NCBI GenBank assembly: GCA_044892525.1
Contig: CM097887.1
Location: forward strand, 93,846,397 to 93,910,396
Direction: 5' to 3'
DNA: 64,000 bases
Source: Schmidtea polychroa
Lineage: Eukaryota
The translations under genes and the position numbers were made by a program. Every line of letters begins with the position of its first letter. Position 1 is the first letter of the stretch. This document shows positions 32,393-57,082 of this stretch, in pieces. Under the pieces are notes generated by a model that was given only the letters and a program-made list of their open reading frames with translations, made no database searches and was not told where the DNA came from.

Positions 32393-32560
32393 ATCTATAA
32401 TATGTACAGTTAATGGTGCGCTATAGTGCGACTTATACGTATACATTGATATAAAATTTAATAGTTTGGGTTACAGTCCCTTGAATACTTTTACAATACT
32501 TTAATTTTTTTGTTTGGGATATACGTCCCGGTTTTTAGTTTTTCATCTTTTCATCCACCC

Positions 32561-35198: not shown

Positions 35199-35283
35199 TC
35201 TATAATTATATGTACAAATAGTTCTTATCGATACAGGTTCGATATTTTATTTACAATTATTTACATTTTAAGCTAGGTTTGGT

Positions 35284-35643: not shown

Positions 35644-35803
35644 TCCTAATTTATATACACTTTTCAACTCTTATGTAAATTTAATTTTATTTTATGATTC
35701 CCGTTATCGTATAATATTGATACCGCGCTTATATAAAGATATAGTACTGTTATATACATAAGATATACTTACTTTTTACAATTATATACAGTCATATTCC
35801 TTT

Positions 35804-37270: not shown

Positions 37271-38950
37271 CGTCCCCCCCTTAGTTGGGTATTCTTTACC
37301 ATCGCATTTTCTCCGTTTTCGTAGAATTCGTTTACATTTATCGCATATTTATTATTTTGTGGTACTCTCCAGGTTAATAATAATTTCATTGCTTCTAGAT
37401 TTTTCCGTACCGTATTCCATTGAAACTGAGATGTGTTTTTGCACATATTTTCAACTTCTTCTTTTGTCGCATTTTTGCAAATAAATCTGATCATTTCTAG
37501 GTTTGGCTGTATGGTTGCCCAGTCCAAGGTGGAATTTCCTTCATTGGACCTTTCGTCTAGTTTCGATCCTGATTGATGTAGGATGTGGAGTGTTTTTGGG
37601 TGTATTTTTGTTATAGCTGCATACATCATGGCGGTTTCGCCTTGTTCATTTTTCGTGTTGGTTTCCTCGCCCATATCTCCAAGGATTCTCACGATCGTTA
37701 TTGCTCTATTTTCTTTCGCTGCTAGTATTGCTTGTTGTAGGGGTGTTCGGGAATCCTTCGTTACCATCGTAAATGCTCGAGGCAAGAAGGTTTTGATTTT
37801 CCCGATATCTAAACCCGTGGTTTGATCTCTTGCGTATGTATGTACAGCTTTTATTATTTTTGACAATATTATTTCGTCTGACAACTCTAGCATTTCCTCA
37901 AAGAATACCTCTTTCGCTTTGCGTATTATTGCCTCCTGATCTATACTCATTGATTTGGTTTCGATGACGTTGTTTATGACCGTTTGGTTCGTTGTTGACT
38001 TTGATTCCCTGGATTTCTCATACCTTATTTTCGTTTTCTTTCCGTTTGGATTATTGATTCGTTCCTCTGCTGTAAGTATTTGGATAATATCCAGGTAATT
38101 CTCGCGGATGTTATTCATTGTGTCCATCATATATAACACACTTACCGTTTCCCAATATTTATTTCGTACTTGGTTAGTAAATTGGAATAGTGATTTTTCG
38201 AATGTGTCGATTCGCTTTTTTGTTAACTGTTCGTCTTTGTGATTTGTGAATTTTATCCCTCGTTCTAGTAATTGATTCGGGATTTCGAATAAATGATGTC
38301 CTTTCATAGCTTCTCTCATCAGCGTGTTCTCTCCTCTCGTGAACGCTTCGTTTACGTTGATCATATAATCGTTTCGAATTGGATTTCTCCATGTAATTAA
38401 TATTCCGGTAATTGTCGTCAGTTTTTCTTTGATCGCTGTTAGCAATCCATCATACATGTTTCCGACTTCCCGATTGTCCTCATATGATAGTAGTTCCATC
38501 AATGACGTGAACGCCTCGGTACTTCTCCCTCTGATAGCATGATGTAGAGCGTTTTTCCGCTCGTGGTCTTGTGTAGTTATTTTCGATCCGGTATCGAGTA
38601 ATGCGGTTATAATGTCTTTTGTTTTTCCTCTGTTTGCTGCTATCATTAATGGTGTGTAACCTTGGTTGTTTGTTTGTTCTGTTGATCGCTTGCAGTCGTG
38701 AAATGCTTCTATTGTTTCTAGTATTTGCTCGTTGTTACCTACTTTCATGAGTTTGTGTAATGGTGTGTCTCCGTAATGATCTGTTATTGTAAATAATATT
38801 GGCCATTGGCTTTTGACTACTCGCAATAATGGGTGTGTCCTTTCTCTATTTGCATAGTTCTCGATCATCGTCAATAATCCTCCTAATATTTCGAAATCTA
38901 ATCGATCTTTTGCCCATCCAGGTATTTTAATTTTTACCTCTTTTACAATC
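37255..38950 (-). other. Ankyrin-repeat region C-terminal to integrase
   Basis: GDTPLH, GYTPLMIAANRG, KNALHHA, SRTPLQQA, GETAMMYAA, GNSTLDWA. Confidence 0.88.
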
Positions 38951-41900
38951 TTTTCCGCTTCTGATGGTTGGATACCCAATCGTCCGGTGATCGGTTCTGC
39001 GAGTTGTTGCATCATGTTCATTCGGTAGGTTTGCGAACGTGTGGTTAATGTACGGCCTTCTGGTTGACTAGTGGCTGTTTTTGGAATTGATTTGCATCGT
39101 GCCACGTTTACGTATATTGGTCTGGTAAAGGGGTTATTTACCAATTTCACTCTTACATTAGTTTCGCCTACGAATAAGATCTCATATGGTCCTTTTCCGT
39201 TGCGTTGCAACTTTTTTGTGGTTCCTGGAATTAATTCCGGGGTTTCTATCATTACCCAATCACCTGTTTGGAACGTATGTTGCTTCACGTTTTTCTTTCG
39301 ATCGTGTAAATCTTTATAACTTTCCTGGTAGAACTTGATATTTAATCCCGCAGTTTCCCAAATTTCTTGCATTCTTTCCTTGAATTTCGTAACATAATCA
39401 TCGATCTCCATATACTGCGATATCGGTGGTTGGTATTCCAGGTCCATTGGCATATTACATTCTCTTCCGTACATTAATTTGAATGGGCTCATTTTCGTTG
39501 ATGCGTGAATCGACATTCTGTACGCCATAAGACATAGGTTTATATATTCATCCCAATCTCGTTGGTGACGGTCAACGTAGTTTGATAACATTTGTATAAG
39601 TGTTCCATTAAATCTTTCCGTCATCCCATTGGTTTGAGGGTGGTATGGAGATGTTCTTAGTTTTGCTATTTTGAAGTAATTTGTTACTTCGCTCATTATC
39701 TCACTCATAAAATTAGTTCCCTGATCGGTTAAGATTTGTTTTGGTGTTCCATATCGGCAACATATCTCTTCTACCAAAATTTTTGCGATTGTTTTAGCTT
39801 TTTGGTCTGGCATCGCGAATGCTTCTGGGAATTTCGTAAGAAAGTCTGTGATCACTAGAATGTAAACGTTTCCTTTATCTGACTCTGGTAGTGGACCAAC
39901 TACGTCCATGGATATCATTGTCATTGGTTCTATTGGTACTGGCATTGGTGTTAAAGGTGCTTTCCATTTCGATCCAGTATTCTTCCTGGTTGCACAAGTT
40001 AGACAATTTTTTACCCATTCAGTTACATCTTCAGTTAACGTAGGCCAAAAATATTTCTGTTTCATTCTTGCTAACGTCTTTTTCGATGACATATGTCCTC
40101 CCAATCTCCCATCGTGATATTGCGTTAGTAACTCTTTTCGTCGGTTTTCCGGTATACACATTAATCGTTTTTCCCCATCCATTATCAGCAACCAATCTTT
40201 CTCTATAATATATCGGTGTCGGTGTTTATCCATATGTTCTTTTAATTTTTGGTCTTTCGCATATACCTCTGTCTTTCCGGTTTTTACATAATCGATAATT
40301 TGTTTTAATTCCGCGTCCTCTTGTTGGTCCTTTCGTAATTGACAGAAATCCAAATCTTCCGCTACTATTAAGCATATGCGTTGCATTTCTGAATCCACCA
40401 AATCTGGGAAAATAAATCTTGACATACAATCGGCGTTGGCATTTGCTCTTCCCGCTTTGAATTTTATAAATGGGGAGTATTCTTGCAATTGCATGGCCCA
40501 TCGCATCAGTCTACTGGACGCTTCTTTATGTTGCCCTAACCACACTAATGGTTGATGATCCGTGGTTATGCATATCTCATGTCCCCATAGTAAATATCGG
40601 AAGTGTTTGATAGCTTGTATTATAGCCAATGCTTCTCGTTCTGTTACCGAATAGTTCTTTTCGTGCTTTTTGAATGTTCGACTGTAATACCCGATTACTC
40701 TCTCTTTTCCCTCATCGTCTAATTGTCCCAAAATCGCGCCTGCCGCGTACCCGCTTGCATCCGTTGCCAATAGAAATGGCTTCTTAAAATCTGGGTGTAC
40801 GAGGATAGGTGCTTCGATTAGCTTATCTCTCAGCGTTTCGAACGCCTGTTGTTGTTCTTTTTCCCAAATGAACGAAATATCCTTCTTTACTAATTCCTGG
40901 ATTGGTTTTGCAATTCCTGCATAATTTTTGATAAATTTGCGATAGTATCCGCATAATCCTAGAAATTCCTGAACTTGGGTGACCGTTTTCGGTGCGGGAC
41001 ATGTTTTTATTTTCTCAATGTTCCTTGGATCTGGCTCCTTTCCTTTAGCTGACACTATGTGTCCTAAAAACGTGACTTTTTCCTTTGCCCAATCGCATTT
41101 TGATGGTTTGAGTTTGAGTTTCCACTGTCTTAATCTAATAAATACGTTTCGGATATCTTCCAGATGTTGTTCAAATGTCGCTGAATAGATTAGTAAATCA
41201 TCAATATATACCATACATTGTTTGATTCCATGGGTGACAAAGTTCATACACCGTTGAAATGATGCTGGTGCGTTGGTCAGTCCAAATGGCATTTTCCTGA
41301 ATTGATATAGATCTCGTCCCAACGTGAAAGCTGTTTTCTCTTTGTCCTCATCTTTGACTTTAATCTGCCAGTATCCACTTTTTAGATCTAAAGAAGTAAA
41401 ATATGCTGCCCCTTGCAACATCAATAACATCTCATTGATGTCCGGCAATGGATAGGTATCTCTCTTGGTCACTACGTTTAACTTCCGATAATCGATACAG
41501 AATCGTTGGGTGCCATCTTTCTTTTTTACCATGACCACTGGGAATTGCCAGGGTGAGCAACTTGGTTCGATTACTTTTGCGTCCAGCATCTTTTGTACTT
41601 CTGCTTCGGCTATTTCTTTTTGCATTTCTGCTAGCTTGTATGGTCTTAATGCAATTGGAGTTTCATCTATGAGGGGTATTGCATGTAGGGTAACATCGCA
41701 TGTACCCAAGTCTAAGTCTGAGATGGCGAATATATCTTTATATTCTACCAACAATCGGTGTAATTTTTTCTTTTCATCATTCGTCAACAACATACTATCT
41801 ATTGTCCATAATTCATCATCTTTGATCATCTCGTTGGTCACTTTCGGTAATTCTATGTCCATCATTGGGGTCAATCTTCCCAATTTTTCGTTCTCATAAA

Positions 41901-44900
41901 TGATTTTGTCTTCTTCTTCGAAATTCGTGATGTTGAGCGGTATCACTCCTTCTTGGTTTATTGTTATTATTTCTCTTGCGAGTGGTAATTCTCGTCGCTT
42001 TTCGAATGACTTGCTTGGTTCAAAGATAACTTCTCCTTCCATACCCGTATCCACTTTTATCTGACAAATCATCTGCGATTTTGCTGGTACTATTATTTTT
42101 TCTGGACATCTGATGACTGCATTCACTTTGCATATTCTACCGGTTTTGTCTTTTAAACACATGGTTGTTAAGTCAATTACGACTTCTTTTAACAATTCTG
42201 GCATCAAATCCGTTCCGATTATGCATGGTACGCTAAGTTTTGGTATTACTGCCAAATACGTTTCAATTTCGTTGTCCTGGTATCTCAATGTAGTCCACCA
42301 TCTTCCGACCACGTCCACTGTTTCTTTACTACATGCTATGATGTGAATTGTTGTTGATTCGATATCCTTCCAGTGTTTACTGGGAATTTGATTAATCGCT
42401 ATCGCCGATACATTAGCTCCTGTGTCTATCATAGCATTGGTTTCTTGACCATTGATTTGGATCATGACTGTCACTGCTGGACCTCCAGGTAGACTCATTG
42501 CTGCGATTGTTCTTACGTCATCTGCTTGATCTACACTTTTGGTACGTCGTGTTGGCATATAATGCATACCGGGTTGACTCGGTAATTGCGGATACATATT
42601 TTGGGTCATGGTCAAAGCTGCTTGTGGTCCCACGATATCCGGTGGTATATAGCTTCCATTGGCGATCCAGGTGTTTGTCTTTTCCTTTTCCCAATATGGT
42701 GCCGTTTCCATTGGTTTTTCGTTTGGGTTTCTGTTTGGATAAAGACATTTATCGTTCCCGTTATCATCGTCGTCACTATCGCTGTTAGATGATTGGCTTC
42801 TAAATCGGTCCAAGAATTTTGGCTTATTCTTTTTCAATTGTCGTCTTGTTGCTTCATCGTACATTACTTTCCGGAATCGTCTGCCTACTTCTTCGTCGGT
42901 TCCTTTAATCTTTGTTAATATTTTAATCAATCGCTTTATCCGATGAATGTCTTTTGAGTGACCATGTAATACCATGGTTTTAGCTAAAAATGGTAAGAAG
43001 CCTACTATCATTTTCCAGTTAACTTTCTTTTCCCGCTTGTATATATCGAAACAAGCTAACATTTGTGTTAGTATTACTCTGACTATCTGAATTATGAGTA
43101 TGATCCCTAATATCCCGGCCATCATTTGTCCAAAAACTAAGAATCTTCCCCACATTGCTTTCATCATGTTTGACGTAGCTTGTTGAAAATGGTCTGGCGA
43201 TAATAGCAGCTCGTAATTCGGGCCTGATTGATAGTTTGTGCCCCCAGTTATTGTTACCATATTTGACAAAATGGATTCTCGTCTGGCTGGGAAGAGTACG
43301 TTAAGTCGTGCTGTTTCTAGATCTTCTGGGGAATACATACCACCGTTTGACACGTCTATAGGTTTGAAATCCAGCTCTGTGGCGAGTTCTATTAATCCAA
43401 ATTTCTTGGGTTCCTCGGATATGGTTTTTCCCGGTAACATCATCCATTTCCCATCGGGTCTTTCATACAAAGGTCCGTATGCATTAGAACAGTTAAAGAG
43501 ATTTGGGTAGAAACCCACTGGATTCATAATTCTAGTGACTGGTTGGACGAATCGATTTTGTCCTTTATAACGAATTTCTAATTCATTTGCACATCTCTTT
43601 TCGGGTAGTATGGATTTTTCTGGCATTCGTGCATACGTCTTGGTACACTGGTATGTGTACATCACTTCTCCTACCATTCTACCAAAGTGTCCATCTGGTA
43701 ATGGGAGTGATGGCATCGTGTTATCGGGGTGCGTTATCGCAATAGCTAGCTTTGTTTTCAATATTTCTTTATTCAATGAACAATCGTTTTGTATCAGATC
43801 GTAATATACTTTTTGCAAGGTCGTTTGTCCGCGATGAAATAGAAAATCCATTTTATTATTTGCATATAAGTACAGTTTTACGTCCTCCGTTGCTATCTTT
43901 CCCACTGCTCTATCGATTATTTGTCTCGACATATAGATACCTGCGTAATTGGTTTTATATACTATACTGTCACATTTGGTGGTTTCTTTTTCTTTGATAA
44001 ATCTCATACCTAGATCTGGATCGTCTGTGATTAATGCTGTTGGTGTCTTCTGCGTTGAAAGTCTCTTTTCTCTGGGAGATGGTGGCATTGGTTTTCCATT
44101 TCGCATTCTCACTCTGTCGTTTCCATCCTCGTCGTTCTCGTTCTCATATATTTCTCCTTTTACTTCATTGAACAAAGCACTTTTTAACAGTTGGAGTCGG
44201 CATTTTTGGGTATTAGCTTCATAGATTATAGTTGATACTCCTGTCCTGCATACGTTTTCTGTAGCTCTACACGCTGGGTTGGTCTTCATTTGGTAATTAT
44301 TTGCGTCAAATTGCGCTTCGTATTCTTTTAATTCGACCGTGTAAGACTCGATCACTACAACTCCCGATATTACCTCGCCTCGGATCGTATACGTACCTCC
44401 GTTACATGACCCATCTGATGATTTTACTTTTCCGGATACGTAAACACTTTCGGTTTTAATCATTCCAGTTTGTCCGTGAATTGTCACTCCGTTATGCATT
44501 TTTAGCGCTCCGGTTCTAAATAGCTCTTTACAATCCTCTCGTTGTATTGATACGATTTCTTTATCCAGACCGGGTAGTATAAGAGTCGAATACGAATATT
44601 GTCCACAGTAATATGCGAGTACCTTTTTTGATACTACGCATTCCCTTGCTTGCGTTCTGATGAAATCTGATTCTTGATATACATGGTAAGTAACTTTTGT
44701 TCTCACGATGTCCAATTTGTTGGGTGAGGCTTGTCTGCATTCTTCTATATCTCTCAATGAGTATTTATCTCTCATTATCATATTATCACAATCGTAGATG
44801 GTGAAACCTGTTGCTCCACTTGTGCACAACATCCATATCATCATAGTCATCATTAACGAATTTATTGATGCTTTTCTGCTTGCGGGATCTTTCATCGGTA

Positions 44901-47900
44901 GTTCCCATTCTAGTTCATTTAACAGTTTTTTCAATCTAACTTGCATCGACCTTTCTTGCTCATTTTTCCGTGGCGCTTGTATCAGTCTTTTCCATCCTCC
45001 TGCACGAATAATATGTGGTTCAATAGTATTCTCTATGATTGAAACGGTCATTTCCACATGATTTGCGAACTGTTTATTTGGTATTTTCCTCGCAGCTAGT
45101 CCCATCAAATTATACATCAAATACGTGATTACCACTAGGTGATGTTCGTCATCATTTGCATTTGTCGTGAGCTGCTCAATCACTCTCTTTGTTTCGTCCC
45201 AATCCGTTTTGGTGGTTTTCGTTTTCTCTTTGATTAACTTTGGGATTATCCCCGAAATGGTGTGCCATAATTGTCTAGCTTCCGTACTGGCTACTTTCCG
45301 TTGCCACAAACGTCTAAGTTGTGGGTTTGTTATTATTAACATATCTTTTAACAATTCTCGTATCCATTTTTCTCCTCTTTCGATCGTTGGTTGGGCTTCC
45401 TTTAGATCCCATACTATTTTATCCAATTTTTCTAATCGAACTTGCCCTTGTTCTTGCTTTAATTGTTCTTTGGTTTTGAACTCAGACTTTTCTCCTTGTT
45501 TCTTAGGTCTTCCTTTTGCCCGTTTTTCCATCATCGTTCCGGCTTCTCTGGTATTTTCGTAATTCGGATTTTTTTCGTTATCCGTTCTGGGTAATGAGCT
45601 ATCGTTATTTCTTAGCCACTCATTCCATTCGTCTATTATTTTGTCGGTTTGACTTTCTGGTGTGACTTTCGTTGGTTCTCTTTGCTTCTGGAATTGTTCA
45701 TCCGTTTCGGTTTCCGTAGTATTGTCGATGATTTCTTTGATGTTCAGTTTCGTTGGTTGTTGATAACTCGTTGATGGCTGGTTATTAGTCCACATTTCGG
45801 CTCCTGTCGGCCATCTCACTAATAGCGGTGATCTTTCTCCTGGTTCATCGTCACTATCTTCCAGGATTATCTCTTCGACTTCTTCAGTTTCATTAGATTT
45901 ACTTGGTGCTTTGTTCGGACTTGGAGTACTCAAACTGCCTTTTGTTGGTTTAATAATTTTACTTTTCCTTTTTAACGGTTTCCCCAACGTTTCTGCCATT
46001 GTTAACACATTTGTCTCTTCCAATCTCATGGGTGTTATCCCGACGTCTGCATTATCGTCTAGTGATTTTCCGAACAGTTGCAGATGGAATGGAGTTTCAT
46101 ATGCTAATTTCTTTTTTAATTCTCTAATTTTTGTTGTTGGATGCACCTCTAGTTCCTCGATGCTCTTGTCCGGATACTTGATTCGGATGTGATACCTCTC
46201 CTGGGTGTCTTGTGCCCATTCCTGATTTCTCCATTTTCGAATAATTTGTTCTAGCTGTTCTGGATACCATTCATTATATTGCCGGTATTCCTCTATTGCC
46301 TTTGCCATTCCTCTCAGATTGTGGATATTCTCTGATGTTTTTAAGATGATATTAGCCAACGCTACTACCTGGCGTTTTTGATTTTTCGCTCCCATTGCTA
46401 AAATATCGCCTAATTGTTTATATCTTTCTTTCTCTTCTCGTTCTCTTGCTTCCGTCGCTTCCTCGCCGTCCATATCAGCATATTCACGCTCCTTTTTCCT
46501 CATTGCATGAATATGTCTCGCTTCATTTTCGCTTTCTGATGTGACATCCGTCTCGCTTTCGTCATCTGATGTCTGTTCCCTTGCTTCCTCTTCATATTCT
46601 GGAGGTTCCTCTTCTTCTTCCTCCGATTCACTTTCTGTCTCACCAATGTCTGTTTCTACGAAGATTCCTTTCCGGATTTCCCATTCCTTATTTTCTGCAT
46701 TCCACACTCTTTCCCATGGGGTTCGTCTGCAGGATCTGGTATTTAATTTCGTGATTTTTCCTTGTAGCTCTTTTTCTTTTAACCATTGTTGGTGGATTTC
46801 AATTATTTCTGTAGATTTCTGATATAACGTTTTCATCCGGTCTCGTATTTCTTTTTGATAGGTTACATCTCTTGTTCGAAATTCATCCATTGGTACTATC
46901 CTGATTATCTGGTGATTGTCCCACATACCCATTTCGCTTAACGAGGTGTCGTCCTCCGCTCGTAATATTATCTTATCGTACATCATGACTACATCATCCA
47001 CCATACCATCACTACTTTCGCTACGTACCTTTTCCGTTATCTCTAGGTTTATTTTTGATACCAAGTCATCCACTGTACTCTGATTGCTCATTTTTATTCG
47101 TCGTTTTTCTTCGTTCGGTAACCATATGGTTATTTCCAACCTCTGTGGCTGGGTTTCTTTTAACCTTCCATATTTGTGGATCAAATTTATGGTTCTCCAA
47201 TCACTCATTCGGAGCATTTCTGTATCTCGCAACCGGCTCATTAGTTCGTACATGGCTGGGGCTCGTCTGGTGATGAGTAAATCCCAGTTGTCTTCTACTT
47301 GTTCTTGAATTTGTTTGATCAGCTTATCCAGGTTTCGTCTCAGAGTACATTGTTTTATTTGTTCTAATTTCAATTTGATATTAAAATCATATTCTGCCTT
47401 GGCATCTTTAGCCCAGTCGTAAAGGTTGGCTGGTTGTTTTTCTTTATGCAACTTCAGTATTTGCGTTTCTCCTGGCCATATTAGTGCATCTACTAAGTGC
47501 ATATCTGGTTTGATCTGTTCTCCTTGGTATTGATACAGATATTCTTTCTTTCTCGAACTTCCCAAATGTTCTCGTATCCAATCGAAAAGTTCGTCGGTGA
47601 CTGTATTTTTTATCCACATTCTTTCAAGTCCTCTACTCGTTCCAATTTTTATTACATACCGCGTGGTATCGGCCTGCTTCATTTTTTCCATATAGTTTTT
47701 TATAATTGGTTTTTCCTCGTTTGGTATTAGATCTTTCTCGTTTCTTTCCAATTTCATCACTTTTTGCACGAATCGCCTGAATGGTATTACGTCGATGAAC
47801 TCTTGGTTCCTCACTACTACTGGGAGTATTTCGGCTACCTGTTTTATCGCTTCCTCCCTTGCTTTTCTCAACTTTATTTCGATATCTTCGTCTTCACTTT

Positions 47901-49656
47901 CACTGGTTATCTCGTTTCCGCTTTCTTCCTCTTTGATTTCCCCTTTTGAGGGTTCGCTTATTTCATTCGGCTGTAGTATTTCTCCACCCAAACTACTTAC
48001 ATAATCTTCTTCTTCGTCTGACGATGCTACATCTTTTGTCCTTTTCATCATATTGATTTGCAAGTTTCTCATCCTTGGTACTCTCTTTAGTTTCTTTCTT
48101 TCGAATATTGTTGTTTCTTCTGATTCTGATTCTTGTAGCATTTGGTGATTTAGTTGACTGGTTTGTTCCCCGCTCTTGTTATTTTCATCTTCTGTCTCGG
48201 TTTTCGCTTTATTATGTTCTTTTTCGATTTTATCCTTTATCTTTTTCCAGAATATTTTCTGAATTCTCTGGTTTCCTTTTGAAATCGTGGTTGAATTCTC
48301 TGTTTTCATTTCCGTTGTTATTTCCTTTACTTTTTCTGGTTCAGTCATGGGTACTACCCTTGGGCTTTTCCCGTAATTGTAGCAATACTGGCTCTTCATG
48401 TCTTTTACTAACTTCATCATATTTATTCGCAATGGTTGTTCTTGTCGTTGTTGGTTGCGTTCTTGTTTTATCCTCTCTTCCTCGGCCTGTAGCCTTTGCC
48501 ATTCTTGTACATGTTGATGCACTTCATAATTGTTGAGATTTTCGGTACTCCTCATCATACGTATATTCTGGGTTTGTTGTGGTGCTGATTCTTGTCTTGG
48601 TCTCATCATTTGTTGCATCATCTGTTTCATCTGCGAAATTTCCTGCATAACGTTCATTTGTTTTCCTTCGTTAGGGTTACTTTGTCGTTGCGGATTCGCT
48701 ATATAATTATTATTTCGCTGTGGTGGTCGTTGTTGTTGGCCCCTTTCTCGGCAATCTCTGGAGATGTGACCTGGCTGACCACAGTTAAAACAACCTCGCA
48801 ATTGGCATACATTTTCGGTATGTCCACGCCGTCCGCAACGATTACAATTTGAATTTCTATAACAATCTCTGTCCCAGTGTCCTGGTTTACCGCATGTTCG
48901 GCACTGCTTGTTATCGTTCATATTTCGCCGATTATTGAAATTGTTCTCATTATTCGGGTTGTTACGATTACCATTATTCCCGTTTGATCGTCCTTGTGGT
49001 GGTTTGAAAATTTGGTGCGCTCCTGGTATAAATTGATTCATTTTCGGTTCTTGATTGTTGTTATCTCCGTTATCCGCTTTCGCTATTGCTGTCGCTATCC
49101 TTCCCTCCTCTTGCATAATATTCATTTGAGCTGGAAGGTGGAGCTCGCATCTTGTAGCCCAATCTATGGCTTCCTCTAATGTTTTGCACATTTGACAACC
49201 TACTGAGGCTCTTACTTCTTCTCGGCGTAATCCCTCTATGAAATAACCGATCAGATTTTCTTCGGGTAATTTTCCATTCATTGCTTTCTTCGCTAATCTC
49301 CGCAATTCACTGGCATATAATGTTATCGATTCGTTTGCTCTTTGTTTCCTATTTGCTAGTTCGCCCAACGCCTGGTTGATTGGCTTACTGGCTCCGAAGG
49401 TTTTCTTCAGGAATGTTTTAATATCTTCCCACTTTTCTAATTTCGTGTCTCTCTCTTTAGCTTCTAAATATACCTCTAATGCACTATCGCACAAAAACAA
49501 CGGCATCCTTTTACTAATTGCTTCGGGTGTCCATCCACACACAGTGATATAAACTTCAAAATTAGTTATGAACGTTGCTAGCTTGTTTGCATTTCCGTTG
49601 AACGGTTCTCCTCTGAACTTCTCTTTATACTCGTCGGTTTTTACGACATTCGTCAT
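37255..49656 (-). CDS. 4133-aa Gag-accessory-Env-Pol-ankyrin polyprotein
   Basis: Single stop-free ORF containing all canonical retrotransposon domains plus inserted domains. Confidence 0.96.
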   Translation of the reverse strand: MTNVVKTDEYKEKFRGEPFNGNANKLATFITNFEVYITVCGWTPEAISKRMPLFLCDSALEVYLEAKERDTKLEKWEDIKTFLKKTFGASKPINQALGELANRKQRANESITLYASELRRLAKKAMNGKLPEENLIGYFIEGLRREEVRASVGCQMCKTLEEAIDWATRCELHLPAQMNIMQEEGRIATAIAKADNGDNNNQEPKMNQFIPGAHQIFKPPQGRSNGNNGNRNNPNNENNFNNRRNMNDNKQCRTCGKPGHWDRDCYRNSNCNRCGRRGHTENVCQLRGCFNCGQPGHISRDCRERGQQQRPPQRNNNYIANPQRQSNPNEGKQMNVMQEISQMKQMMQQMMRPRQESAPQQTQNIRMMRSTENLNNYEVHQHVQEWQRLQAEEERIKQERNQQRQEQPLRINMMKLVKDMKSQYCYNYGKSPRVVPMTEPEKVKEITTEMKTENSTTISKGNQRIQKIFWKKIKDKIEKEHNKAKTETEDENNKSGEQTSQLNHQMLQESESEETTIFERKKLKRVPRMRNLQINMMKRTKDVASSDEEEDYVSSLGGEILQPNEISEPSKGEIKEEESGNEITSESEDEDIEIKLRKAREEAIKQVAEILPVVVRNQEFIDVIPFRRFVQKVMKLERNEKDLIPNEEKPIIKNYMEKMKQADTTRYVIKIGTSRGLERMWIKNTVTDELFDWIREHLGSSRKKEYLYQYQGEQIKPDMHLVDALIWPGETQILKLHKEKQPANLYDWAKDAKAEYDFNIKLKLEQIKQCTLRRNLDKLIKQIQEQVEDNWDLLITRRAPAMYELMSRLRDTEMLRMSDWRTINLIHKYGRLKETQPQRLEITIWLPNEEKRRIKMSNQSTVDDLVSKINLEITEKVRSESSDGMVDDVVMMYDKIILRAEDDTSLSEMGMWDNHQIIRIVPMDEFRTRDVTYQKEIRDRMKTLYQKSTEIIEIHQQWLKEKELQGKITKLNTRSCRRTPWERVWNAENKEWEIRKGIFVETDIGETESESEEEEEEPPEYEEEAREQTSDDESETDVTSESENEARHIHAMRKKEREYADMDGEEATEAREREEKERYKQLGDILAMGAKNQKRQVVALANIILKTSENIHNLRGMAKAIEEYRQYNEWYPEQLEQIIRKWRNQEWAQDTQERYHIRIKYPDKSIEELEVHPTTKIRELKKKLAYETPFHLQLFGKSLDDNADVGITPMRLEETNVLTMAETLGKPLKRKSKIIKPTKGSLSTPSPNKAPSKSNETEEVEEIILEDSDDEPGERSPLLVRWPTGAEMWTNNQPSTSYQQPTKLNIKEIIDNTTETETDEQFQKQREPTKVTPESQTDKIIDEWNEWLRNNDSSLPRTDNEKNPNYENTREAGTMMEKRAKGRPKKQGEKSEFKTKEQLKQEQGQVRLEKLDKIVWDLKEAQPTIERGEKWIRELLKDMLIITNPQLRRLWQRKVASTEARQLWHTISGIIPKLIKEKTKTTKTDWDETKRVIEQLTTNANDDEHHLVVITYLMYNLMGLAARKIPNKQFANHVEMTVSIIENTIEPHIIRAGGWKRLIQAPRKNEQERSMQVRLKKLLNELEWELPMKDPASRKASINSLMMTMMIWMLCTSGATGFTIYDCDNMIMRDKYSLRDIEECRQASPNKLDIVRTKVTYHVYQESDFIRTQARECVVSKKVLAYYCGQYSYSTLILPGLDKEIVSIQREDCKELFRTGALKMHNGVTIHGQTGMIKTESVYVSGKVKSSDGSCNGGTYTIRGEVISGVVVIESYTVELKEYEAQFDANNYQMKTNPACRATENVCRTGVSTIIYEANTQKCRLQLLKSALFNEVKGEIYENENDEDGNDRVRMRNGKPMPPSPREKRLSTQKTPTALITDDPDLGMRFIKEKETTKCDSIVYKTNYAGIYMSRQIIDRAVGKIATEDVKLYLYANNKMDFLFHRGQTTLQKVYYDLIQNDCSLNKEILKTKLAIAITHPDNTMPSLPLPDGHFGRMVGEVMYTYQCTKTYARMPEKSILPEKRCANELEIRYKGQNRFVQPVTRIMNPVGFYPNLFNCSNAYGPLYERPDGKWMMLPGKTISEEPKKFGLIELATELDFKPIDVSNGGMYSPEDLETARLNVLFPARRESILSNMVTITGGTNYQSGPNYELLLSPDHFQQATSNMMKAMWGRFLVFGQMMAGILGIILIIQIVRVILTQMLACFDIYKREKKVNWKMIVGFLPFLAKTMVLHGHSKDIHRIKRLIKILTKIKGTDEEVGRRFRKVMYDEATRRQLKKNKPKFLDRFRSQSSNSDSDDDDNGNDKCLYPNRNPNEKPMETAPYWEKEKTNTWIANGSYIPPDIVGPQAALTMTQNMYPQLPSQPGMHYMPTRRTKSVDQADDVRTIAAMSLPGGPAVTVMIQINGQETNAMIDTGANVSAIAINQIPSKHWKDIESTTIHIIACSKETVDVVGRWWTTLRYQDNEIETYLAVIPKLSVPCIIGTDLMPELLKEVVIDLTTMCLKDKTGRICKVNAVIRCPEKIIVPAKSQMICQIKVDTGMEGEVIFEPSKSFEKRRELPLAREIITINQEGVIPLNITNFEEEDKIIYENEKLGRLTPMMDIELPKVTNEMIKDDELWTIDSMLLTNDEKKKLHRLLVEYKDIFAISDLDLGTCDVTLHAIPLIDETPIALRPYKLAEMQKEIAEAEVQKMLDAKVIEPSCSPWQFPVVMVKKKDGTQRFCIDYRKLNVVTKRDTYPLPDINEMLLMLQGAAYFTSLDLKSGYWQIKVKDEDKEKTAFTLGRDLYQFRKMPFGLTNAPASFQRCMNFVTHGIKQCMVYIDDLLIYSATFEQHLEDIRNVFIRLRQWKLKLKPSKCDWAKEKVTFLGHIVSAKGKEPDPRNIEKIKTCPAPKTVTQVQEFLGLCGYYRKFIKNYAGIAKPIQELVKKDISFIWEKEQQQAFETLRDKLIEAPILVHPDFKKPFLLATDASGYAAGAILGQLDDEGKERVIGYYSRTFKKHEKNYSVTEREALAIIQAIKHFRYLLWGHEICITTDHQPLVWLGQHKEASSRLMRWAMQLQEYSPFIKFKAGRANANADCMSRFIFPDLVDSEMQRICLIVAEDLDFCQLRKDQQEDAELKQIIDYVKTGKTEVYAKDQKLKEHMDKHRHRYIIEKDWLLIMDGEKRLMCIPENRRKELLTQYHDGRLGGHMSSKKTLARMKQKYFWPTLTEDVTEWVKNCLTCATRKNTGSKWKAPLTPMPVPIEPMTMISMDVVGPLPESDKGNVYILVITDFLTKFPEAFAMPDQKAKTIAKILVEEICCRYGTPKQILTDQGTNFMSEIMSEVTNYFKIAKLRTSPYHPQTNGMTERFNGTLIQMLSNYVDRHQRDWDEYINLCLMAYRMSIHASTKMSPFKLMYGRECNMPMDLEYQPPISQYMEIDDYVTKFKERMQEIWETAGLNIKFYQESYKDLHDRKKNVKQHTFQTGDWVMIETPELIPGTTKKLQRNGKGPYEILFVGETNVRVKLVNNPFTRPIYVNVARCKSIPKTATSQPEGRTLTTRSQTYRMNMMQQLAEPITGRLGIQPSEAEKIVKEVKIKIPGWAKDRLDFEILGGLLTMIENYANRERTHPLLRVVKSQWPILFTITDHYGDTPLHKLMKVGNNEQILETIEAFHDCKRSTEQTNNQGYTPLMIAANRGKTKDIITALLDTGSKITTQDHERKNALHHAIRGRSTEAFTSLMELLSYEDNREVGNMYDGLLTAIKEKLTTITGILITWRNPIRNDYMINVNEAFTRGENTLMREAMKGHHLFEIPNQLLERGIKFTNHKDEQLTKKRIDTFEKSLFQFTNQVRNKYWETVSVLYMMDTMNNIRENYLDIIQILTAEERINNPNGKKTKIRYEKSRESKSTTNQTVINNVIETKSMSIDQEAIIRKAKEVFFEEMLELSDEIILSKIIKAVHTYARDQTTGLDIGKIKTFLPRAFTMVTKDSRTPLQQAILAAKENRAITIVRILGDMGEETNTKNEQGETAMMYAAITKIHPKTLHILHQSGSKLDERSNEGNSTLDWATIQPNLEMIRFICKNATKEEVENMCKNTSQFQWNTVRKNLEAMKLLLTWRVPQNNKYAINVNEFYENGENAMVKNTQLRGGRLKLF
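39040..40370 (-). other. Integrase (HHCC, DDE, GPY/F)
   Basis: YHDGRLGGH...CLTC; SMDVVGP; LTDQGTNF; TERFNG; GPYEI. Confidence 0.95.
40400..41720 (-). other. Reverse transcriptase and RNase H
   Basis: LDLKSGYWQ, YIDDLLIYS, LATDASG, ELEA-like EREALA, TDHQPL, ADCMSR. Confidence 0.96.
42130..42480 (-). other. Retropepsin aspartic protease (followed by a dUTPase-like spacer to ~41875)
   Basis: AMIDTGANVSAI and IIGTDLM. Confidence 0.93.
42960..44853 (-). other. Envelope-like glycoprotein, chuvirus/class III fusion type, with internal signal peptide and TM
   Basis: Signal MMTMMIWMLCTSGATG, then FTIYDC, YYCGQYSYS, REDCKELFRTG, DGSCNGGTY; furin site REKR at 44062-44073; WGRFLVFGQMMAGILGIILII TM. 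Confidence 0.82.
44975..45440 (-). other. Bcl-2-like domain
   Basis: ENTIEPHIIRAGGW matches BH2 (Bcl-xL NDHLEPWIQENGGW); helix spacing from KRVIEQL to GGW is within one residue of Bcl-xL; BH1 NWGR not conserved. Confidence 0.7.
45998..47660 (-). other. Three ubiquitin-like domains (~47445-47660, ~46890-47143, ~45998-46198)
   Basis: LEVHPTTKIRELKKKL...LQLFGKSLDD; STVDDLVSKI...DDTSLSEMGM; YLYQYQGEQIKPD. Confidence 0.65.
48750..49656 (-). other. Gag: capsid plus three CCHC zinc knuckles
   Basis: Retrotransposon capsid-like N-terminus; CRTCGKPGHWDRDC, CNRCGRRGHTENVC, CFNCGQPGHISRDC. Confidence 0.95.
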
Positions 49657-50967
49657 GATTGGTGTTCTAGGTTCGTCTGTTTCTTTTAAATTGTCTAACG
49701 ATGTGACTAAACTTTGGGCTGATAATTCTTCGGTTGACGTTGCTAAACTATTAGTGATATCGGACAGACTTTCTCTACTTCGAGATCGACTAGGGGTATA
49801 TCCGAGATTTTCTTGGTCAAATATGGGTACTTGATTGGTTCTTCTGGATCCTTGTGATATTCCTCTTTGATGTTTAATGGATCGTCCTCTTTTGAGTTGT
49901 TGTAATTCGTCTCCTGAAAATAATACGTCTCCTGGCTTACTTGAAGATCTAAGATTGGGTTTATCCGTGATTCCTTTCTTACGCTTCTTGGTAATTAGCG
50001 GCTATTGAATTGGACGCGTTCGGTTCTGATTGTGTTTCCTTCGATAAATATTCTGTATGAATCTGCTACTGAGATCCTGAGGAGATTTACTAATCCTTGG
50101 CAGATGGCTGCTAATACTTCTTCCGTTCTGGAGTCTTCCGGTTGCTGTGTCTCTCGGTGCGGGTTCTGAATGGATTTATCCTTGGTTGATTGTCGATTTC
50201 TTCGAATTCCTTTTGTGCAGGTTCTGGATTGTCTTGGTTGGCTGGATTGGCTTGATATCTAAAATGAAAAAATGATCTCGTGTTGCATTTGCTTACACGA
50301 CTTCATCATTCTTTCTACAACATTCAAAAACAGACACCTTTTAGGTTTCTGTTTGTGCTTCCCCTATCTTTTGTGAAATCCTTTCTGCGGGTTATAATAT
50401 CCCATCAGCCCGTATTTTCCGTCGATTTTAAATTATCTATATGGGGTAGTAACAATTATCTATAAAGTCGTAATAATTATCTATTCGTTATCAATTATAG
50501 TAAAAATAGGTCGTTGTCGGTCTCTGCTTATTACCCCCCTTTCATTTTCCTAATCCTTTTGCGCTGTTGTCGCTATTTTACTTTTCATATTCACTATTAT
50601 TACGCTCGGTTCTACTCTGGAACCAATAAAATGCATTTTCCCGGTTTAACCAACAAAAAAAATATTCCGTAGAGTTTCTCTACTTCACTGGGATCCCTTT
50701 AATTAGTTAGTTACTTTCCTCTTTACTCATTATCATCGTTTCATCTATTCTTTATTTTCTATTATCTCTTTAATTCGTTTCCTTCTTCCCTTTCCTTTTT
50801 CATTATAATCCTATTTTCTTTTCCACGAGCTCGTTTATTTCCTCTCTAAACTCGAATTTTCAAAATTACATTCAATTTGTTCTAGCTAGCTTTAATATTC
50901 CATATCACTAGTAATTTAAATATTATCTCATTGTAGCTTAACTGCTATCTCTCGTTTTTCTAGGCCT

Positions 50968-51520
50968 TTACGACTGGCTGGCACTATTCAACAGCTCAAT
51001 CTTCTTCCTTCTGATCGGTTAGACTATTCAACAACTCGATCTTACGACTGGCTGGCATTATTCAACAGCTCAATCTTCCTCCTTCCTGATCGGTTGGACT
51101 TTTCACAACTCGACCTTACGACTGGCTGGCACTATTCAACAGCTCAATCTTCTTCCTTCTGATCGGTTGGACTTTTCACAACTCGACCTTACGACTGGCT
51201 GGCACTATTCAACAGCTCAGTCTTCCTCCTTCCTGATCGGTTGGACTTTTCACAACTCGACCTTACGACTGGCTGGCACTATTCAACAGCTCAATCTTCT
51301 TCCTTCTGATCGGTTGGACTATTCAACAACTCGATCTTACGACTGGCTGGCACTATTCAACAGCTCAATCTTCCTCCTTCCTGATCGGTTGGACTTTTCA
51401 CAACTCGACCTTACGACTGGCTGGCACTATTCAACAGCTCAATCTTCTTCCTTCTGATCGGTTGGACTTTTCACAACTCGACCTTACGACTGGCTGGCAC
51501 TATTCAACAGCTCAATCTTC
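50968..51520. repeat. Tandem array, 8 copies of a 73-74 bp unit in the element leader
   Basis: Unit starts at 50968, 51042, 51116, 51189, 51263, 51337, 51411, 51484; internal ctattcaaca sub-repeat. Confidence 0.95.
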
Positions 51521-52095
51521 AATATTCCTCGCTCTGCATGCTTCTATTTCTCTTTTCTTCTTTTACTCTAGTTTACCATTTTCTCTGTCTACTTTTAATT
51601 TGTCGACTTAATCTTTACCGCTTGGGAGTGTTTCCCCTTTCCCCCCTTGCTCAAAACGCACGACGATCGCGATGATCCATTTCTACCTTGGCATGGTGAT
51701 CAGTCATGTCGCAAAAACTTCTCATCATATGCGATGGTACCCCGCCCTACGCTTCTTACTTGGGTTGATCAGTTATCCCCTCCCAACGGGTTCTTGCAAT
51801 AAGACGTACCGCCCGAAGGTGGCTCGGTTTGTACCCCTGCAGTCTATATTGGGACTAATTCCACGTTATTCAACCCTCTCTTCATTTGATTCCGAAGAAA
51901 AAGAATAAAACAAAACAAACACGCAAATATTCATTCGTCATGCAAATTTTATTAGTCCTAATCATCAAAACTTTTTAAAGACGAATTTATTTATCATAAA
52001 CATAAAGATTGAATCATTAACAGTACGTGTTACTTCAACAATTTCATGCATTCTTGTTCAAACATCGTATACTTGCTGTTACATCGCCGGCCGTT

Positions 52096-52581
52096 TCATT
52101 CGCCATAATAGACCATATGGGTCTCTTTTATTTCATATTTGCACATCGTGCATCTTTTTAGGTCTTTTACACACTCTTCACAGTGACTGAGGTGTCCACA
52201 CGGTAAGAATAATACGCGAATAGGACGGAGTTTGCAGGCTATACAAGTTCGTAATTGGTTAACTTTTTCCTGTATTTTTTGTTCGATTGCATCTGGTATT
52301 GTATTTAGTGAGTCTTTTAGACGCTGATAATCTAGATTTAATGTTGGGTGGTTCAATCTCTCTTGATACCACTGATATACGGTTTCGGGGTTTATTTTTC
52401 CATCTGGGCGACTTAGGCCTGTGGCTAATATCATATGATTAGGTACGACTGGTGTTTGTCCGATTGCTTGTAGTAATATCGCGTTGATTTTTTCTCTTTT
52501 ATGCGTCAGTGTTGTTAGGGAGTCGTTTTCTATATCGATAAACTTGAGCAGTTGTTGCATTTGGTTCGCGAATTCTGTCAT
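52096..52581 (-). CDS. Accessory ORF with IAP-type C-terminal RING, no BIR visible
   Basis: CIACKLRPIRVLFLPCGHLSHCEEC...CTMCKYEI; acceptor ttttccaacag 2 nt before the ATG. Confidence 0.82.
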   Translation of the reverse strand: MTEFANQMQQLLKFIDIENDSLTTLTHKREKINAILLQAIGQTPVVPNHMILATGLSRPDGKINPETVYQWYQERLNHPTLNLDYQRLKDSLNTIPDAIEQKIQEKVNQLRTCIACKLRPIRVLFLPCGHLSHCEECVKDLKRCTMCKYEIKETHMVYYGE

Positions 52582-52894
52582 AGCTGTTGGAAAAGTAATG
52601 TTTTAATAATATGTAGTAAATTAATAGTTAATTCGTTAATTGGTTTCTTTAACCATTGTTAATTATTTAATTTGACTACTTTATCTCCTTTATTTATATC
52701 CTTAATTTTTCTATTATCTACATTTTGATTTTCTCTACTTAGTTCCTAATATAATTTAATAATCAATAGTTAATTGGCATTCGTCAAGCAATGGTCGGTC
52801 GAAAACAGAAAATCGATGTGATAAATCCCTTTAATTTTTTATGAAAATCCCGGTGAATTTCGCATTCGTTAATAGAAATTTCGATCGATTGTAG

Positions 52895-52912
52895 ATCCCG
52901 GCTGAGCCCCCA
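52895..52912 (-). promoter_or_regulatory. Primer binding site, tRNA-Pro type
   Basis: Sense TGGGGGCTCAGCCGGGAT vs the MLV tRNA-Pro PBS TGGGGGCTCGTCCGGGAT (16/18); 7 nt from the 5' LTR. Confidence 0.85.
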
Positions 52913-52919
52913 ATAATCA

Positions 52920-55900
52920 TGTTGGGGTTACACCTCGGCTGACTACCCTACCAAATTGACGGGTCTAAGGGTTGATTGTCCATCTCGAATAAAAGGTGCC
53001 ATCGATTTGTCAACCTGGGGTGAAACCCCACATAACTTTCTTCCAACATAGTGCCCGTGAATCACTTCACGTTGGTACTGCACTATGCAGGCGAGACGCC
53101 AGCAAGCAGGTGAGCTTCTGCCTTAAAACTACTCCTTGCTGAGGCCTCGACTTCCCACTTACGACTGCCGTTAGAAGGGCTTACGTCCATTTCCTTACAC
53201 AACCACTTATCAGGATTCGCTGAATGCAAATTGGGAATTTCTCACTAGATCTTGCGGGTTCTCTACTCAACCCACTTAATTAAAATCTAATTATTCATGA
53301 ACGAAAACGTGTAAGACAACAAGATTTATTAATTTCAACGTTATGACACAAGGATTCAGCTGTACACTTTACTAATGTTTGTCGAAAGAAGAGAAAACAT
53401 CATAATCAACATAGATCGGATCCTTGTTCTTCATCCTGACCGCCACTGGGGTTCTATTGTTTCTCCCATTCAGCGTCGGCGAATAATTCGTCGAGGTTAA
53501 AAAACTCGGAAGCGTTCTCTTCCCACGTTACGCCAGCGGCTGATATGATTCGTGCTGAGGGTCCCGTTGTTAGGTCGATGGACACGTGAGAGTTACCACC
53601 GTTGGTTGAATCCTCTATTGATGGGATGTTTGGCTTTGTAGTGGCGCGTTCGCGCTGTCTCTTCTTGCGCTCTGCACGAGAGAGTTGTTTGCGCTTGGGT
53701 TTGCTTGAAGATGCCACTTGCAGAGGGGTGACTGATACAGATGGACTAGCAGTGGGGGGCTTACTGGTACCCGTGACGACAACATCTGGTCGCTTGGGGG
53801 ACAATTCGTTTTCGACGCAGTCTTGGCACGGTCTCTTGAACGGTGGAGATGGATTCGAGGAAAGGTTGTGATGAGGCGGAAAGATGTCATCGGCCTCTCG
53901 GATGGGAATCTGCACTATTTTTCGGGTTGTAGCCGCCTGCACGTAAACCTTATGCAGTGCCTCGGATTGTTCTCTGATTAGACTTCTTTGGGCACGGCTC
54001 TCAGATATTAGCGCGTCCCGGCAATGCTCGCTACGATCGAGCTTCTTTTGGATCTCCTTCATCCGAGCGGGACTAAACCATGTCCCTTCCAGCTCGTCGA
54101 TTTTTCGTTTATATCGACCGATCTGGGCTTGAAGATCTTTAATCACTGCATTTTTATCTGAGCAGGAGAAGCAGGGACGTAGAGCTGATTTGTTGTTTGG
54201 TAACATAATGGATGGCTAAAGAAGAAAACTATGGTGACTATATCTAAAAATTTCGGATCAGATATACGGTTTATCCGCTATTGGATACTTAGTGCTGGAA
54301 GAAAACAAGACGAGTCGACGAAACAGGATCCCTCCCTTCACCCTTGATTACTAATATTTTACGTATCCTTTACAGAAAATTATTCCCCAACGCCCTGATT
54401 GCTTCCCTGACGAATGCAAATTATTTGTAAAAATTTTAATTTTCGTCTATCGCGTTCGAGTTGGATTTCTATCTATCGCACATAAAGGCAATTTACGGAT
54501 TTATTCATGCCGGAGCGAATAAACCTATTTCATTACAAATACACTATACTACACTTCGTTTAAATTTCGCTGATTATTTGTTGTTATTCTAATGCAAAAT
54601 AAGGTTTTTGGACCAGATGCAACTAGTAAAAACTTGCACCCTTACCTCAAGTAGCGGAATAAGTAATAACTCGTAATTTCGTATAAACTATACGTCACTA
54701 TTTTATGATTACCCCTTATCCATACCATACGGTGATATCGTCGTAGAAATATAGCATCGTAAAAATATTGTAATTACATAATAATTTGTTATCGGATTTA
54801 GTTTTCTATTACAATACGTCATTTACAGGGAATATGAGAAATTTAACTACAATATTACTAGCTATTTTATAACCCAAAAATTCCTGTAGATGCTTTAGTT
54901 AATTTAAATTTGGCTCAAAGGCTACTACTATTATTTGTAACATCTAATTAGAATTACGATAAACCTCTACAACACTTAGGTGAAACTTCCTATGGTTTAG
55001 TTATAAAGTTTGGTTTGAATTTTCGGTTATTAATTAAAATACCCCTTCAACAATTTCGATTTTTATTTAGAATATTTAATTTAAGCAAAATTATCTTTAA
55101 TGAGTGCACTTTAGAGAGTCTCTTATCTTAGTAGTCGGTTACTGGTTATTTTGGCTTATCTTTTTAGTGGTACGAATGACCTTCATCAGTAGTGAAATTT
55201 AAGAGTCAGTCATCTGGAAGTCACATCTCATGTCAGCATTATCTAATATGACCACTGATTACTACTCACACACTAAGAATCCTAGAGAGGGTGACACATG
55301 GCGGCATTCCCTGCGGTGAGAGGCACTCGGAATGATTCTGCTGTTTCTCATGCATATTTCTGACCGGATGACGCTACTCATAGTTATGTTAGCAGTATGT
55401 CTGTATGTATGGGTGCCTGTTCGATGGAAATTTTATCGGTAACTATCAACCGTACTGAGCGAACTGCAAATGTTACATCGCGTGTCGATTCCCATCTGAG
55501 CTTATGATGTTGGATTTATTTACTACGACTCGTAATTTCCTCAATATTGGATGTTTTTGAACGATGGGAGATCTCTACGAACCAGCCAACTAGACTCTAT
55601 GAAGCATATTTCAGTAGTGGATATTTCGACGCAACAGCATGAAAATTATTCAATGGGTATTACCAGATTTTGTTAATATATGTGATTGAATACAGTATTA
55701 TTGTGGTTTTATGTTTTACTTTTCCTTTATTGTAAATTCCTCATCATATGCTAAGATTTGGATGTCGCATCTGAAAGAGATGACCTAAATTAGATTTACT
55801 TTTTCAAAAATCTACCGAATGCAATTTCAACTTCTCGATATGTTAGAAAAACCAGCGATGGATGTTTAATGGTATTTTCCCCCACATGGTAAGTTCGGAT

Positions 55901-57081
55901 TTATAGACAGAAGTGGCATGAATGTCTTATAAGACGACTCTGGACAATACAGAGTTAATATGAGAACTCCCTCAGTCGCTGTGAAGCACATATCCTATTT
56001 TCGAAAATTTCATAAGGTTTCCTTTCGGTCTATATTTCGGTACTCCGACAGATTTTAAGTCCTTCAGCAATTGGACCCGTGAAGAAGCCTTCACATTTCG
56101 GCCCAATCTAGCTGCGTGATTGAAATACTCCATGTCCACCGGCTGAGCTCCCGAAGGCACCTCGCACCATGACATGGAGTATCTCAACGCCACGTTTCTC
56201 GTTAATATTAGAAATCATAAAACTATCACTTCAAAATAAATATCCATAAAAGTTATGTAAGAGTTCACCTGTTACCAATAAATACTTTTAAACATTTAAA
56301 TTATTTACTTTATCAAAATCGTTATTCAGGATCAAATGAAAAGAGAGTCTGGTTAAATTTAAAAGTTTAATTGCTCATTAAATATACATATTTACTATTA
56401 ACTTCGAAAAACAATATCATAAATAAAAATCCCTTACTATGGAATTAGGCTGAATCGGAAAATTAACGTTAGTCGTTCCAAATTAGTCTGATGATGGTTC
56501 GTCGAATGTCGATTGCTGTGACTGATTTCGAATTGCTGTGAAGTTTTTCGAATTAACTGTTGCTCTACTTGTATTGCTGATCCTTGAAATAAGTCTCCGT
56601 GAGTTGTAGATGTCTATGAAATGCTCGGGGTTAACAGTAAAAACAGTAAACATTTTTTCTTACCTATGAAATGCTCGGGGTTAACAGTAAATTTAATGTT
56701 TTTGGTAGTTGTATATATATCAAATTCTTATTTGTGCGGACCAATCAGAGTTGAGTACCGCTTATTTCTATTAATTTAATATAATTTTCTTGTTTTTAGG
56801 TTGTTTTCTCCTTATTTTCTTTATTTTTAATATGTTTTTCTATTTATTTCCTTAATTTCCTTATTATTTCTTGAATTCCTCTTTATTTATTTGTCAACTT
56901 GTTCTATTTTAATCTTTTCTTAATTTTATTTTTTGTTTTAATTCTTATGTCTTACTTATTATTTTCCTTATATCTTATTCTATTTTATTTCTGATTTTAT
57001 TTGTTTTATTATTATTTTTCTTAATGTTCTACTTCCCTACTTTCCTATTTTTCAACGATTAAATTTTCGACTCAGCCCAAC

Positions 57082-57082
<1 letters not shown>
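52920..57082 (-). repeat. 5' LTR (4163 bp)
   Basis: Same termini and length as the 3' LTR; adjacent to the PBS. Confidence 0.96.
53454..54206 (-). CDS. LTR-encoded 250-aa protein (5' LTR copy)
   Basis: Translation identical to 27143-27895. Confidence 0.75.
   Translation of the reverse strand: MLPNNKSALRPCFSCSDKNAVIKDLQAQIGRYKRKIDELEGTWFSPARMKEIQKKLDRSEHCRDALISESRAQRSLIREQSEALHKVYVQAATTRKIVQIPIREADDIFPPHHNLSSNPSPPFKRPCQDCVENELSPKRPDVVVTGTSKPPTASPSVSVTPLQVASSSKPKRKQLSRAERKKRQRERATTKPNIPSIEDSTNGGNSHVSIDLTTGPSARIISAAGVTWEENASEFFNLDELFADAEWEKQ

Follow-up and report, generated by a model that had tools for sequence, protein, structure and literature searches.

A diverged Bcl-2-like domain preceding Env in the polyprotein of a Burro-type retroelement of Schmidtea polychroa

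Genetic organization of the retroelement

The analysed window, a stretch of 64,000 nucleotides of the Schmidtea polychroa genome (GCA_044892525.1, contig CM097887.1), contains a complete giant LTR retroelement with the following components:

26609..57082, minus strand: complete giant Ty3/gypsy LTR element of 30,474 bp, located within an (AAT)n tract
52920..57082, minus strand: 5' LTR, 4,163 bp, with TG...CA ends, identical to the 3' LTR
26609..30771, minus strand: 3' LTR, 4,163 bp
37255..50001, minus strand: one open frame of 4,248 codons, whose first Met lies at 49656
48748..49503, minus strand: Gag, consisting of Retrotrans_gag (PF03732, E 2.8e-9) and CCHC knuckles (PF00098, E 5.8e-10)
43036..44805, minus strand: Env fusion glycoprotein (Monjiviricetes_fusion, PF24664, E 7e-72), transmembrane segment at 43069-43125
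39586..42468, minus strand: protease, reverse transcriptase, RNase H and integrase (Pfam)
37483..38733, minus strand: ankyrin-repeat modules downstream of the integrase (PF12796, E 1.4e-17)
33813..35246, minus strand: accessory ORF for a TRAF-like RING and MATH protein (PF21355, E 6.6e-27; zf-C3HC4, E 1e-4)

The single open frame specifies, in this order, Gag, a Ubl-like region with a weak match (E 0.064), the Bcl-2-like domain, a signal peptide, Env, PR, RT, RH, IN and ankyrins. Since the two LTRs are identical over their 4,163 bp, the insertion is very young. The low GC content of the flanks, together with the element type, is in keeping with a planarian source. A search of the 781-Mb genome yielded 907 candidates for the Bcl-2-like domain, most of them on four large contigs; 150 of these were scored, and all are 94-100% identical. 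The commonest open frame among the scored copies comprises 4,732 codons, whereas that of the window copy stops earlier.

With its length of 30,474 bp, LTRs of 4,163 bp and a single Gag-(Ubl)-BCL2-Env-PR-RT-RH-IN-ankyrin polyprotein, the element is of the Burro type, the assignment being made by architecture as described and to no numbered Burro family. Burro-1 to -4 and GYPSM1 of S. mediterranea and a relative from Dugesia tigrina are, according to PMC6431247 (citing Grohme et al. 2018 and Jurka 2007), likewise longer than 30 kb, bounded by LTRs, present in many copies and provided with MATH/TRAF cargo. The same source describes one huge polyprotein that includes Gag, Ubi/SUMO-like and BCL2-like regions, an in-frame env before the protease, PR-RT-RH-IN and ankyrins. 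Differences concern the RING and MATH domains, which are encoded by a separate downstream ORF in the window but within ORF1 in Burro1 and by an upstream accessory ORF in D. tigrina, and the length of the common frame (4,732 codons here versus 4,873 amino acids). A BIR domain was not matched among the nine proteins scanned with Pfam (ORFs of at least 200 aa). BURRO1 has been described as being under PIWI control (excerpts of PMC8532177).

Several minor features of the window were recorded as well. The accessory ORF at 33813-35246 (minus strand) combines a RING, a coiled coil and a TRAF/MATH region and has the appearance of a TRAF mimic inside the element. A 514-codon frame (35804-37348, minus strand) overlaps the end of the main frame, and three more accessory ORFs of 218, 258 and 368 codons without a clear Pfam family are found in 30772-33667 (minus strand), the longest of which opens with a signal-peptide-like stretch. 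A primer-binding-site-like sequence (52895-52912, minus strand), resembling tRNA-Pro, is non-adjacent to the LTR, at a distance of 7 nt from its end, and the 5' leader between LTR and gag contains a tandem array of units of approximately 74 bp (50968-51529). Each LTR harbours a 253-codon open frame (27146-27904 and 53457-54215, minus strand), and a diverged relative, perhaps an old solo LTR, occurs at about 21850-25740 (with 22304-23080, minus strand). On the plus strand, a host CBP/p300-like exon with KIX and bromodomain was detected at 14351-15238, and the open frames at 16865-17953 and 20978-21637 gave no Pfam match; the latter resembles by eye the start of a large ORF in locus L110, and a Maverick-like remnant may flank the retroelement on its left.

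Location of the Bcl-2-like domain and homology to the Bcl-2 family

A preliminary description of the locus, made from the sequence, had proposed a Bcl-2 homologue within the retrotransposon polyprotein at 44975..45440. This span contains the domain, whereas its uppermost 20 codons or so belong to a linker, the predicted helix 1 starting at about 45381. The domain and its motif slots are positioned as follows:

44977..45381, minus strand: Bcl-2-like domain
45334-45366, minus strand: helix 1, BH4 slot
45235-45279, minus strand: degenerate BH3 slot
45142-45153, minus strand: BH1 slot, DDEH
44992-45021, minus strand: BH2
45499..45516, minus strand: AT-hook-like GRP motif upstream of the domain

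All peptide motifs on which the proposal was founded are present in frame, namely TKRVIEQL (45169-45192), DDEHH (45139-45153), LVVITYL (45118-45138) and ENTIEPHIIRAGGW (44992-45033), although LVVITYL is shifted by one residue relative to the alignment register originally given. The single extra residue in comparison with Bcl-xL was recovered (61 residues from a conserved Val to GGW, versus 60), and the replacement of the BH1 motif NWGR was reproduced by the family alignment, in which it aligns with DDEH.

Direct comparisons of the window domain yielded little. The Pfam model PF00452 scored 14-16 bits with the domain alone, below the cut-off of 31.4; on the polyprotein it covered aa 1599-1670 with 14.1 bits (E 0.071), and another scan of the domain gave E 0.018. 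No match at E<=10 was obtained in a PDB sequence search, and none in direct searches of a protein collection (near and longer lengths) and of the ESM Atlas or in a profile search of the same protein collection. A weak match to Ribosomal_L17 (E 0.02-0.05) was rejected, because it was found in one of 22 family members, as opposed to 21 of 22 for Bcl-2. The GRP motif precedes BH2 by 148-167 residues in families A and B and in P0003 and P0008, and was not found in families C-F; it is followed by a short amphipathic helix that is BH3-like in family B.

The relatives of the domain were more informative. Searching the genome with PF00452 revealed cellular Bcl-2 genes along with a second element family, B, with frames of approximately 3,050 codons (about 29 bits), and families C, D, E and F came to light when the genome was searched with the Env family and with another domain. 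In all five sister families (B-F) a related domain occupies the same slot, immediately followed by a hydrophobic segment and Env, and relatives outside this genome have it there as well. The sister-family domains share 13-20% identity with that of the window, with L11, V68, L72, Y88, GGW and L134 being invariant; overall, the identity between families is 13-24%, at which the BH2 GGW and the Bcl-2-like core are still retained. From 1.84 billion proteins, 12 matches were obtained, six of them with gag or env context, three short fragments devoid of context and three ordinary-looking Bcl-2 proteins, one of which is named as camel Bcl-2.

PF00452 was matched by 21 of the 22 members of alignment A2 (best E 4.4e-7). 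A profile of the sister families (A3, 15 rows, window family excluded) detected Bcl-2/Bcl-xL in the PDB at E 3e-5, all 60 matches listed of a total of 132 being Bcl-2 or Bcl-xL, and the E-values of the profiles against these PDB entries ranged from 3e-5 to 5e-7. Aligned by hhalign, the window family and A3 matched at 93% (E 3e-7). Moreover, a 27-row profile trimmed to the domain, from which the family of the window had been left out, assigned 43.0 bits to aa 1546-1675 of the window polyprotein, versus at most 8.3 bits in the controls (500 block shuffles and the reversed polyprotein). The proposal of a Bcl-2 homologue was thereby borne out, with the PDB matches of A3 and the predicted fold in agreement, and judged from these profiles the window domain is almost certainly homologous to Bcl-2. 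Membership of the Bcl-2 family, as seen by sequence, is transitive in that it runs through the profiles, the window domain alone staying below the Pfam cut-off.

Predicted fold of the domain

For structure prediction with AF2 an alignment of 29 rows was used, which included the genomic context-less fragments P0002, P0005 and P0010 and left out the three ordinary Bcl-2 matches. The resulting model (pLDDT 68.7, pTM 0.66) comprises seven helices according to DSSP, and a Bcl-2-type helical bundle is predicted; a single-sequence AlphaFold model reached a pLDDT of 43 and was not used. When the model was compared with the PDB by Foldseek, as the preliminary description had suggested, all 38 matches listed belonged to the Bcl-2 family (TM 0.42-0.59), the best E-value being 0.031 and none reaching 0.001. 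The VIA comparison ranked BAK1 and Bcl-xL first, with BAK1 (2jcn) at the top (Z 9.5, rmsd 3.5, 123 aligned residues), a Z-score that is within the chance range for helical bundles; designed bundles occupied ranks 3 and 10. Of the 18 best rows 15 were Bcl-2-like structures, as were 21 of the 50 rows altogether, and these covered a larger part of the model than did most unrelated bundles. Viral matches included A179L (Z 8.2), KsBcl-2 (Z 7.5) and BHRF1 (Z 6.9), and the top three rows from a viral structure library were likewise Bcl-2 homologues with weak E-values. The scores are modest, yet sequence and fold agree.

The cellular Bcl-2 family (BAK1 2jcn, Bcl-xL, Bcl-2 and BOK) shares the predicted fold, the BH2 GGW and hydrophobic core positions with the window domain. 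In contrast to these proteins, to which its structural identity amounts to 7-15%, the domain displays DDEH instead of NWGR, is part of a polyprotein and has as its putative anchor a signal peptide, predicted to be cleavable, that lies 45 residues downstream. The viral Bcl-2 proteins (ASFV A179L, KSHV KsBcl-2, EBV BHRF1, herpesvirus saimiri ORF16 and poxvirus CNP058, DPV022 and ORFV125) similarly represent captured and diverged folds in mobile genomes. They are, however, encoded by stand-alone genes of DNA viruses, most with demonstrated BH3 binding, whereas the window domain is a portion of a retroelement polyprotein known from sequence.

Selection on the domain and composition of the BH motifs

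A comparison of the domain with three copies of a divergent subfamily (L085-L087) gave a dN of 0.042 at saturated dS (2.2-3.6), corresponding to a dN/dS ratio of approximately 0.02. In the same comparison the dN values were 0.041-0.042 for gag and 0.055 for env, the domain being no looser. The domain is accordingly under strong purifying selection, which indicates that it is in use, without specifying which use. A chance resemblance, or a functionless relic retained as a spacer, would be in keeping with the score below the Pfam cut-off, the competing weak match to Ribosomal_L17 and the empty direct searches; it is very improbable, being largely refuted by the 43 bits of the leave-out profile and the dN/dS of about 0.02 and contradicted also by profile homology and fold.

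Conservation of the BH2-like residues in related elements, an expectation of the preliminary description, was confirmed across the 29 rows: G130 is invariant, and G129 and W131 are retained in at least 90%. Of the BH2 signature W-x-x-x-x-GGW the window family possesses GGW; the first Trp, found in 13 of 16 family rows, is His there. The BH1 signature NWGR is absent from the window family, which has DDEH. Among the same 16 rows the Gly slot of NWGR is occupied by Gly once and by an acidic residue 11 times, and the Arg slot by Lys in nine, Arg in two and Val in four rows, with His in the window family. Family B keeps GVNRDKV, near BH1. The BH3 slot in helix 2 retains the hydrophobic spacing and lacks the small-residue/Asp pair; in family C it is BH3-like.

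In vertebrate Bcl-2 and Bcl-xL, loss of the BH1 Gly abolishes BH3 binding, as seen by mutagenesis. Since this Gly is lost in 15 of the 16 rows, binding of BH3 peptides in the classic groove appears doubtful, most so in the window family. This bears on an alternative reading, namely a classic viral Bcl-2 whose groove would bind the BH3 of host BAK/BOK-like proteins, or Beclin, and thereby block mitochondrial apoptosis or autophagy. The predicted full-length Bcl-2 fold, the BH3-binding viral proteins A179L, KsBcl-2 and BHRF1 among the structural matches, the near-BH1 sequence of family B, the basic residues in the Arg slot (Lys in 9/16, Arg in 2/16) and the presence of host Bcl-2 genes, some BAK-like by eye, are consistent with such a role. 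Nevertheless, it is unlikely in view of the Gly replacement, the changes of NWGR to DDEH and of the BH2 Trp to His in the window family and the incomplete BH3 slot of this family; the properties of the adjacent hydrophobic segment, described below, point in the same direction. A motif search of eight loci found no host BH3 exon.

The hydrophobic segment between the domain and Env

The preliminary description had assigned two functions, those of an Env signal peptide and of a Bcl-2 membrane anchor, to a hydrophobic segment following the domain. The segment is indeed present and has the anatomy of a signal peptide, although its hydrophobic part lies outside the span given there and, at a best 19-residue hydropathy of 1.27, is shorter than would be expected of a tail anchor. 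By its sequence pattern it can be divided as follows:

44806..44880, minus strand: predicted internal Env signal peptide
44866-44880, minus strand: basic n-region
44824-44856, minus strand: h-region of 11 residues, starting 45 residues past GGW
44806-44823, minus strand: polar c-region

Cleavage would occur before 44805. In all 13 env-bearing rows the segment (42-70 residues) ends directly before xxx[YF]DC, and position -1 relative to the predicted cut is occupied by G, A, S or C in 12 of the 13; the segment thus reads as an internal, cleavable signal peptide of Env. As to membrane tail anchor features, the h-region consists of 11 residues, lacks a basic C-terminal flank and runs on into Env. 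With a best 12-residue value of 1.82 and a best 19-residue value of 1.27, the hydropathy of the segment is the weakest among the families, the others attaining 1.9-2.4 over 19 residues. After the cut the segment would form the C-terminus of the Gag..Bcl-2 product, which renders a dual role as signal peptide and ER anchor plausible. Tail anchors without C-terminal basic residues are, as a general rule, directed to the ER rather than to mitochondria. The absence of such residues, together with the cleavable appearance, points to the ER as the membrane concerned, which also argues against the classic mitochondrial mode of action. The tether may not hold in the window family, as its h-region is short and weakly hydrophobic.

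Proposed function of the domain

Taken together, we favour, with a probability of about one in two, a diverged Bcl-2-like domain that is tethered to the ER through the cleaved Env signal peptide and is likely pro-survival without use of the classic BH3 groove. The internal signal peptide would direct Env into the ER while the Gag..Bcl-2 portion remains cytosolic; a subsequent cut by signal peptidase ahead of mature Env would leave the domain with the 11-residue h-region as its tether, and the protease of the element may release it from Gag. Some viral proteins with a Bcl-2 fold act through a surface other than the groove. In a comparable manner the domain could influence the death or stress signalling of the host by way of a surface outside the groove, beside the TRAF-like and ankyrin cargo of the element.

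In each of the families examined the domain has a fixed position, after Gag and ahead of the Env signal peptide, whereas other cargo varies. This would also suit a structural task, in which a membrane-bound, matrix-like module with no remaining role in cell death links Gag to Env at the ER. The restriction of invariance to core residues and a constraint equal to that of gag and env also speak for such a module. It is considered unlikely, as the BH2 GGW and the Bcl-2-like core persist at 13-24% interfamily identity, the spacer to the signal peptide varies between 42 and 70 residues and the TRAF-like and ankyrin cargo suggests a host-signalling theme. The idea of an NF-kB-binding factor, included in the preliminary description, found no support, and it is weakened by the report of no clear NF-kB homologue but only divergent RHD genes in S. 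mediterranea (excerpts of PMC13563047).

Relation to published elements and significance

That a BCL2-like motif precedes env in Burro elements is already known. PMC6431247 credits the motif in planarian Burro elements to Grohme et al. 2018; it locates env downstream of BCL2 and ahead of the protease, and asks for experimental work. The domain is therefore less hidden than first supposed, and the surprise is limited with respect to its existence and place. The present analysis adds support for the fold, data on selection, a candidate donor subfamily and the observation that loss of the BH1 Gly is shared. A literature search with few subscription papers found no functional test of the Burro-type BCL2 motif or of the signal-peptide/anchor idea. 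The HSV/gB-type errantiviruses of Platyhelminthes, Nematoda and Bryozoa (PMC13524379) exhibit a GAG-ENV-POL order, with Env likewise between gag and pol in a Ty3/gypsy context; the word Bcl is absent from the main text of that paper.

A retroelement with its own death regulator may, by sustaining the life of stem cells, secure its residence in them, as reported for Burro1, whose RING and BIR (IAP) module is stated to protect stem cells (excerpts of PMC13465017, citing a 2026 Dev Cell paper). Planarian TRAF-like proteins have been linked to cell survival (excerpts of PMC7586133). The Bcl-2 module is the more constant cargo, being found in one and the same slot in each of the six families examined.

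Origin of the domain and other Bcl-2 genes of the genome

In a tree of 28 rows and 80 columns the 16 element-type rows are located on one side of one branch (support 100/99); two of the 16 are context-less fragments, the rows did not include P0010 or the intron-bearing L036 type, and L029 and L031 gave no segment. Nearest to this branch are the host gene L032, P0012 and the Bcl-2 genes of multi-copy DNA elements (L043, L047), with long branches throughout. Because of these long branches, a single capture of a Bcl-2 gene by the retroelement lineage is a lead only.

A broader scenario would trace all Gag-Env-Pol retroelements of the lineage back to a single, ancient acquisition of a non-canonical Bcl-2 gene of flatworms, from a subfamily now also present on Maverick-like DNA elements of this genome, with the Env signal peptide replacing the tail anchor. 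Every Env would then be accompanied by an obligatory, ER-tethered and groove-dead Bcl-2 that either shields the stem cell in which it is made or forms the matrix layer of the particle. This scenario is tentative and, on balance, rather unlikely in its entirety.

Multi-copy stand-alone Bcl-2 genes were noticed at L110:6278-6733 (minus strand), in L043-L048 and in L036-L041, L049, L050, L111 and L112. They look like cargo of Maverick/Polinton-like elements because of their location beside TBP-like genes, A32-type packaging ATPase or PolB-like fragments. One type is intronless (152 aa, PF00452 32.5 bits) and adjoins the retroelement domains in the tree, and the other is apparently split by a short intron.
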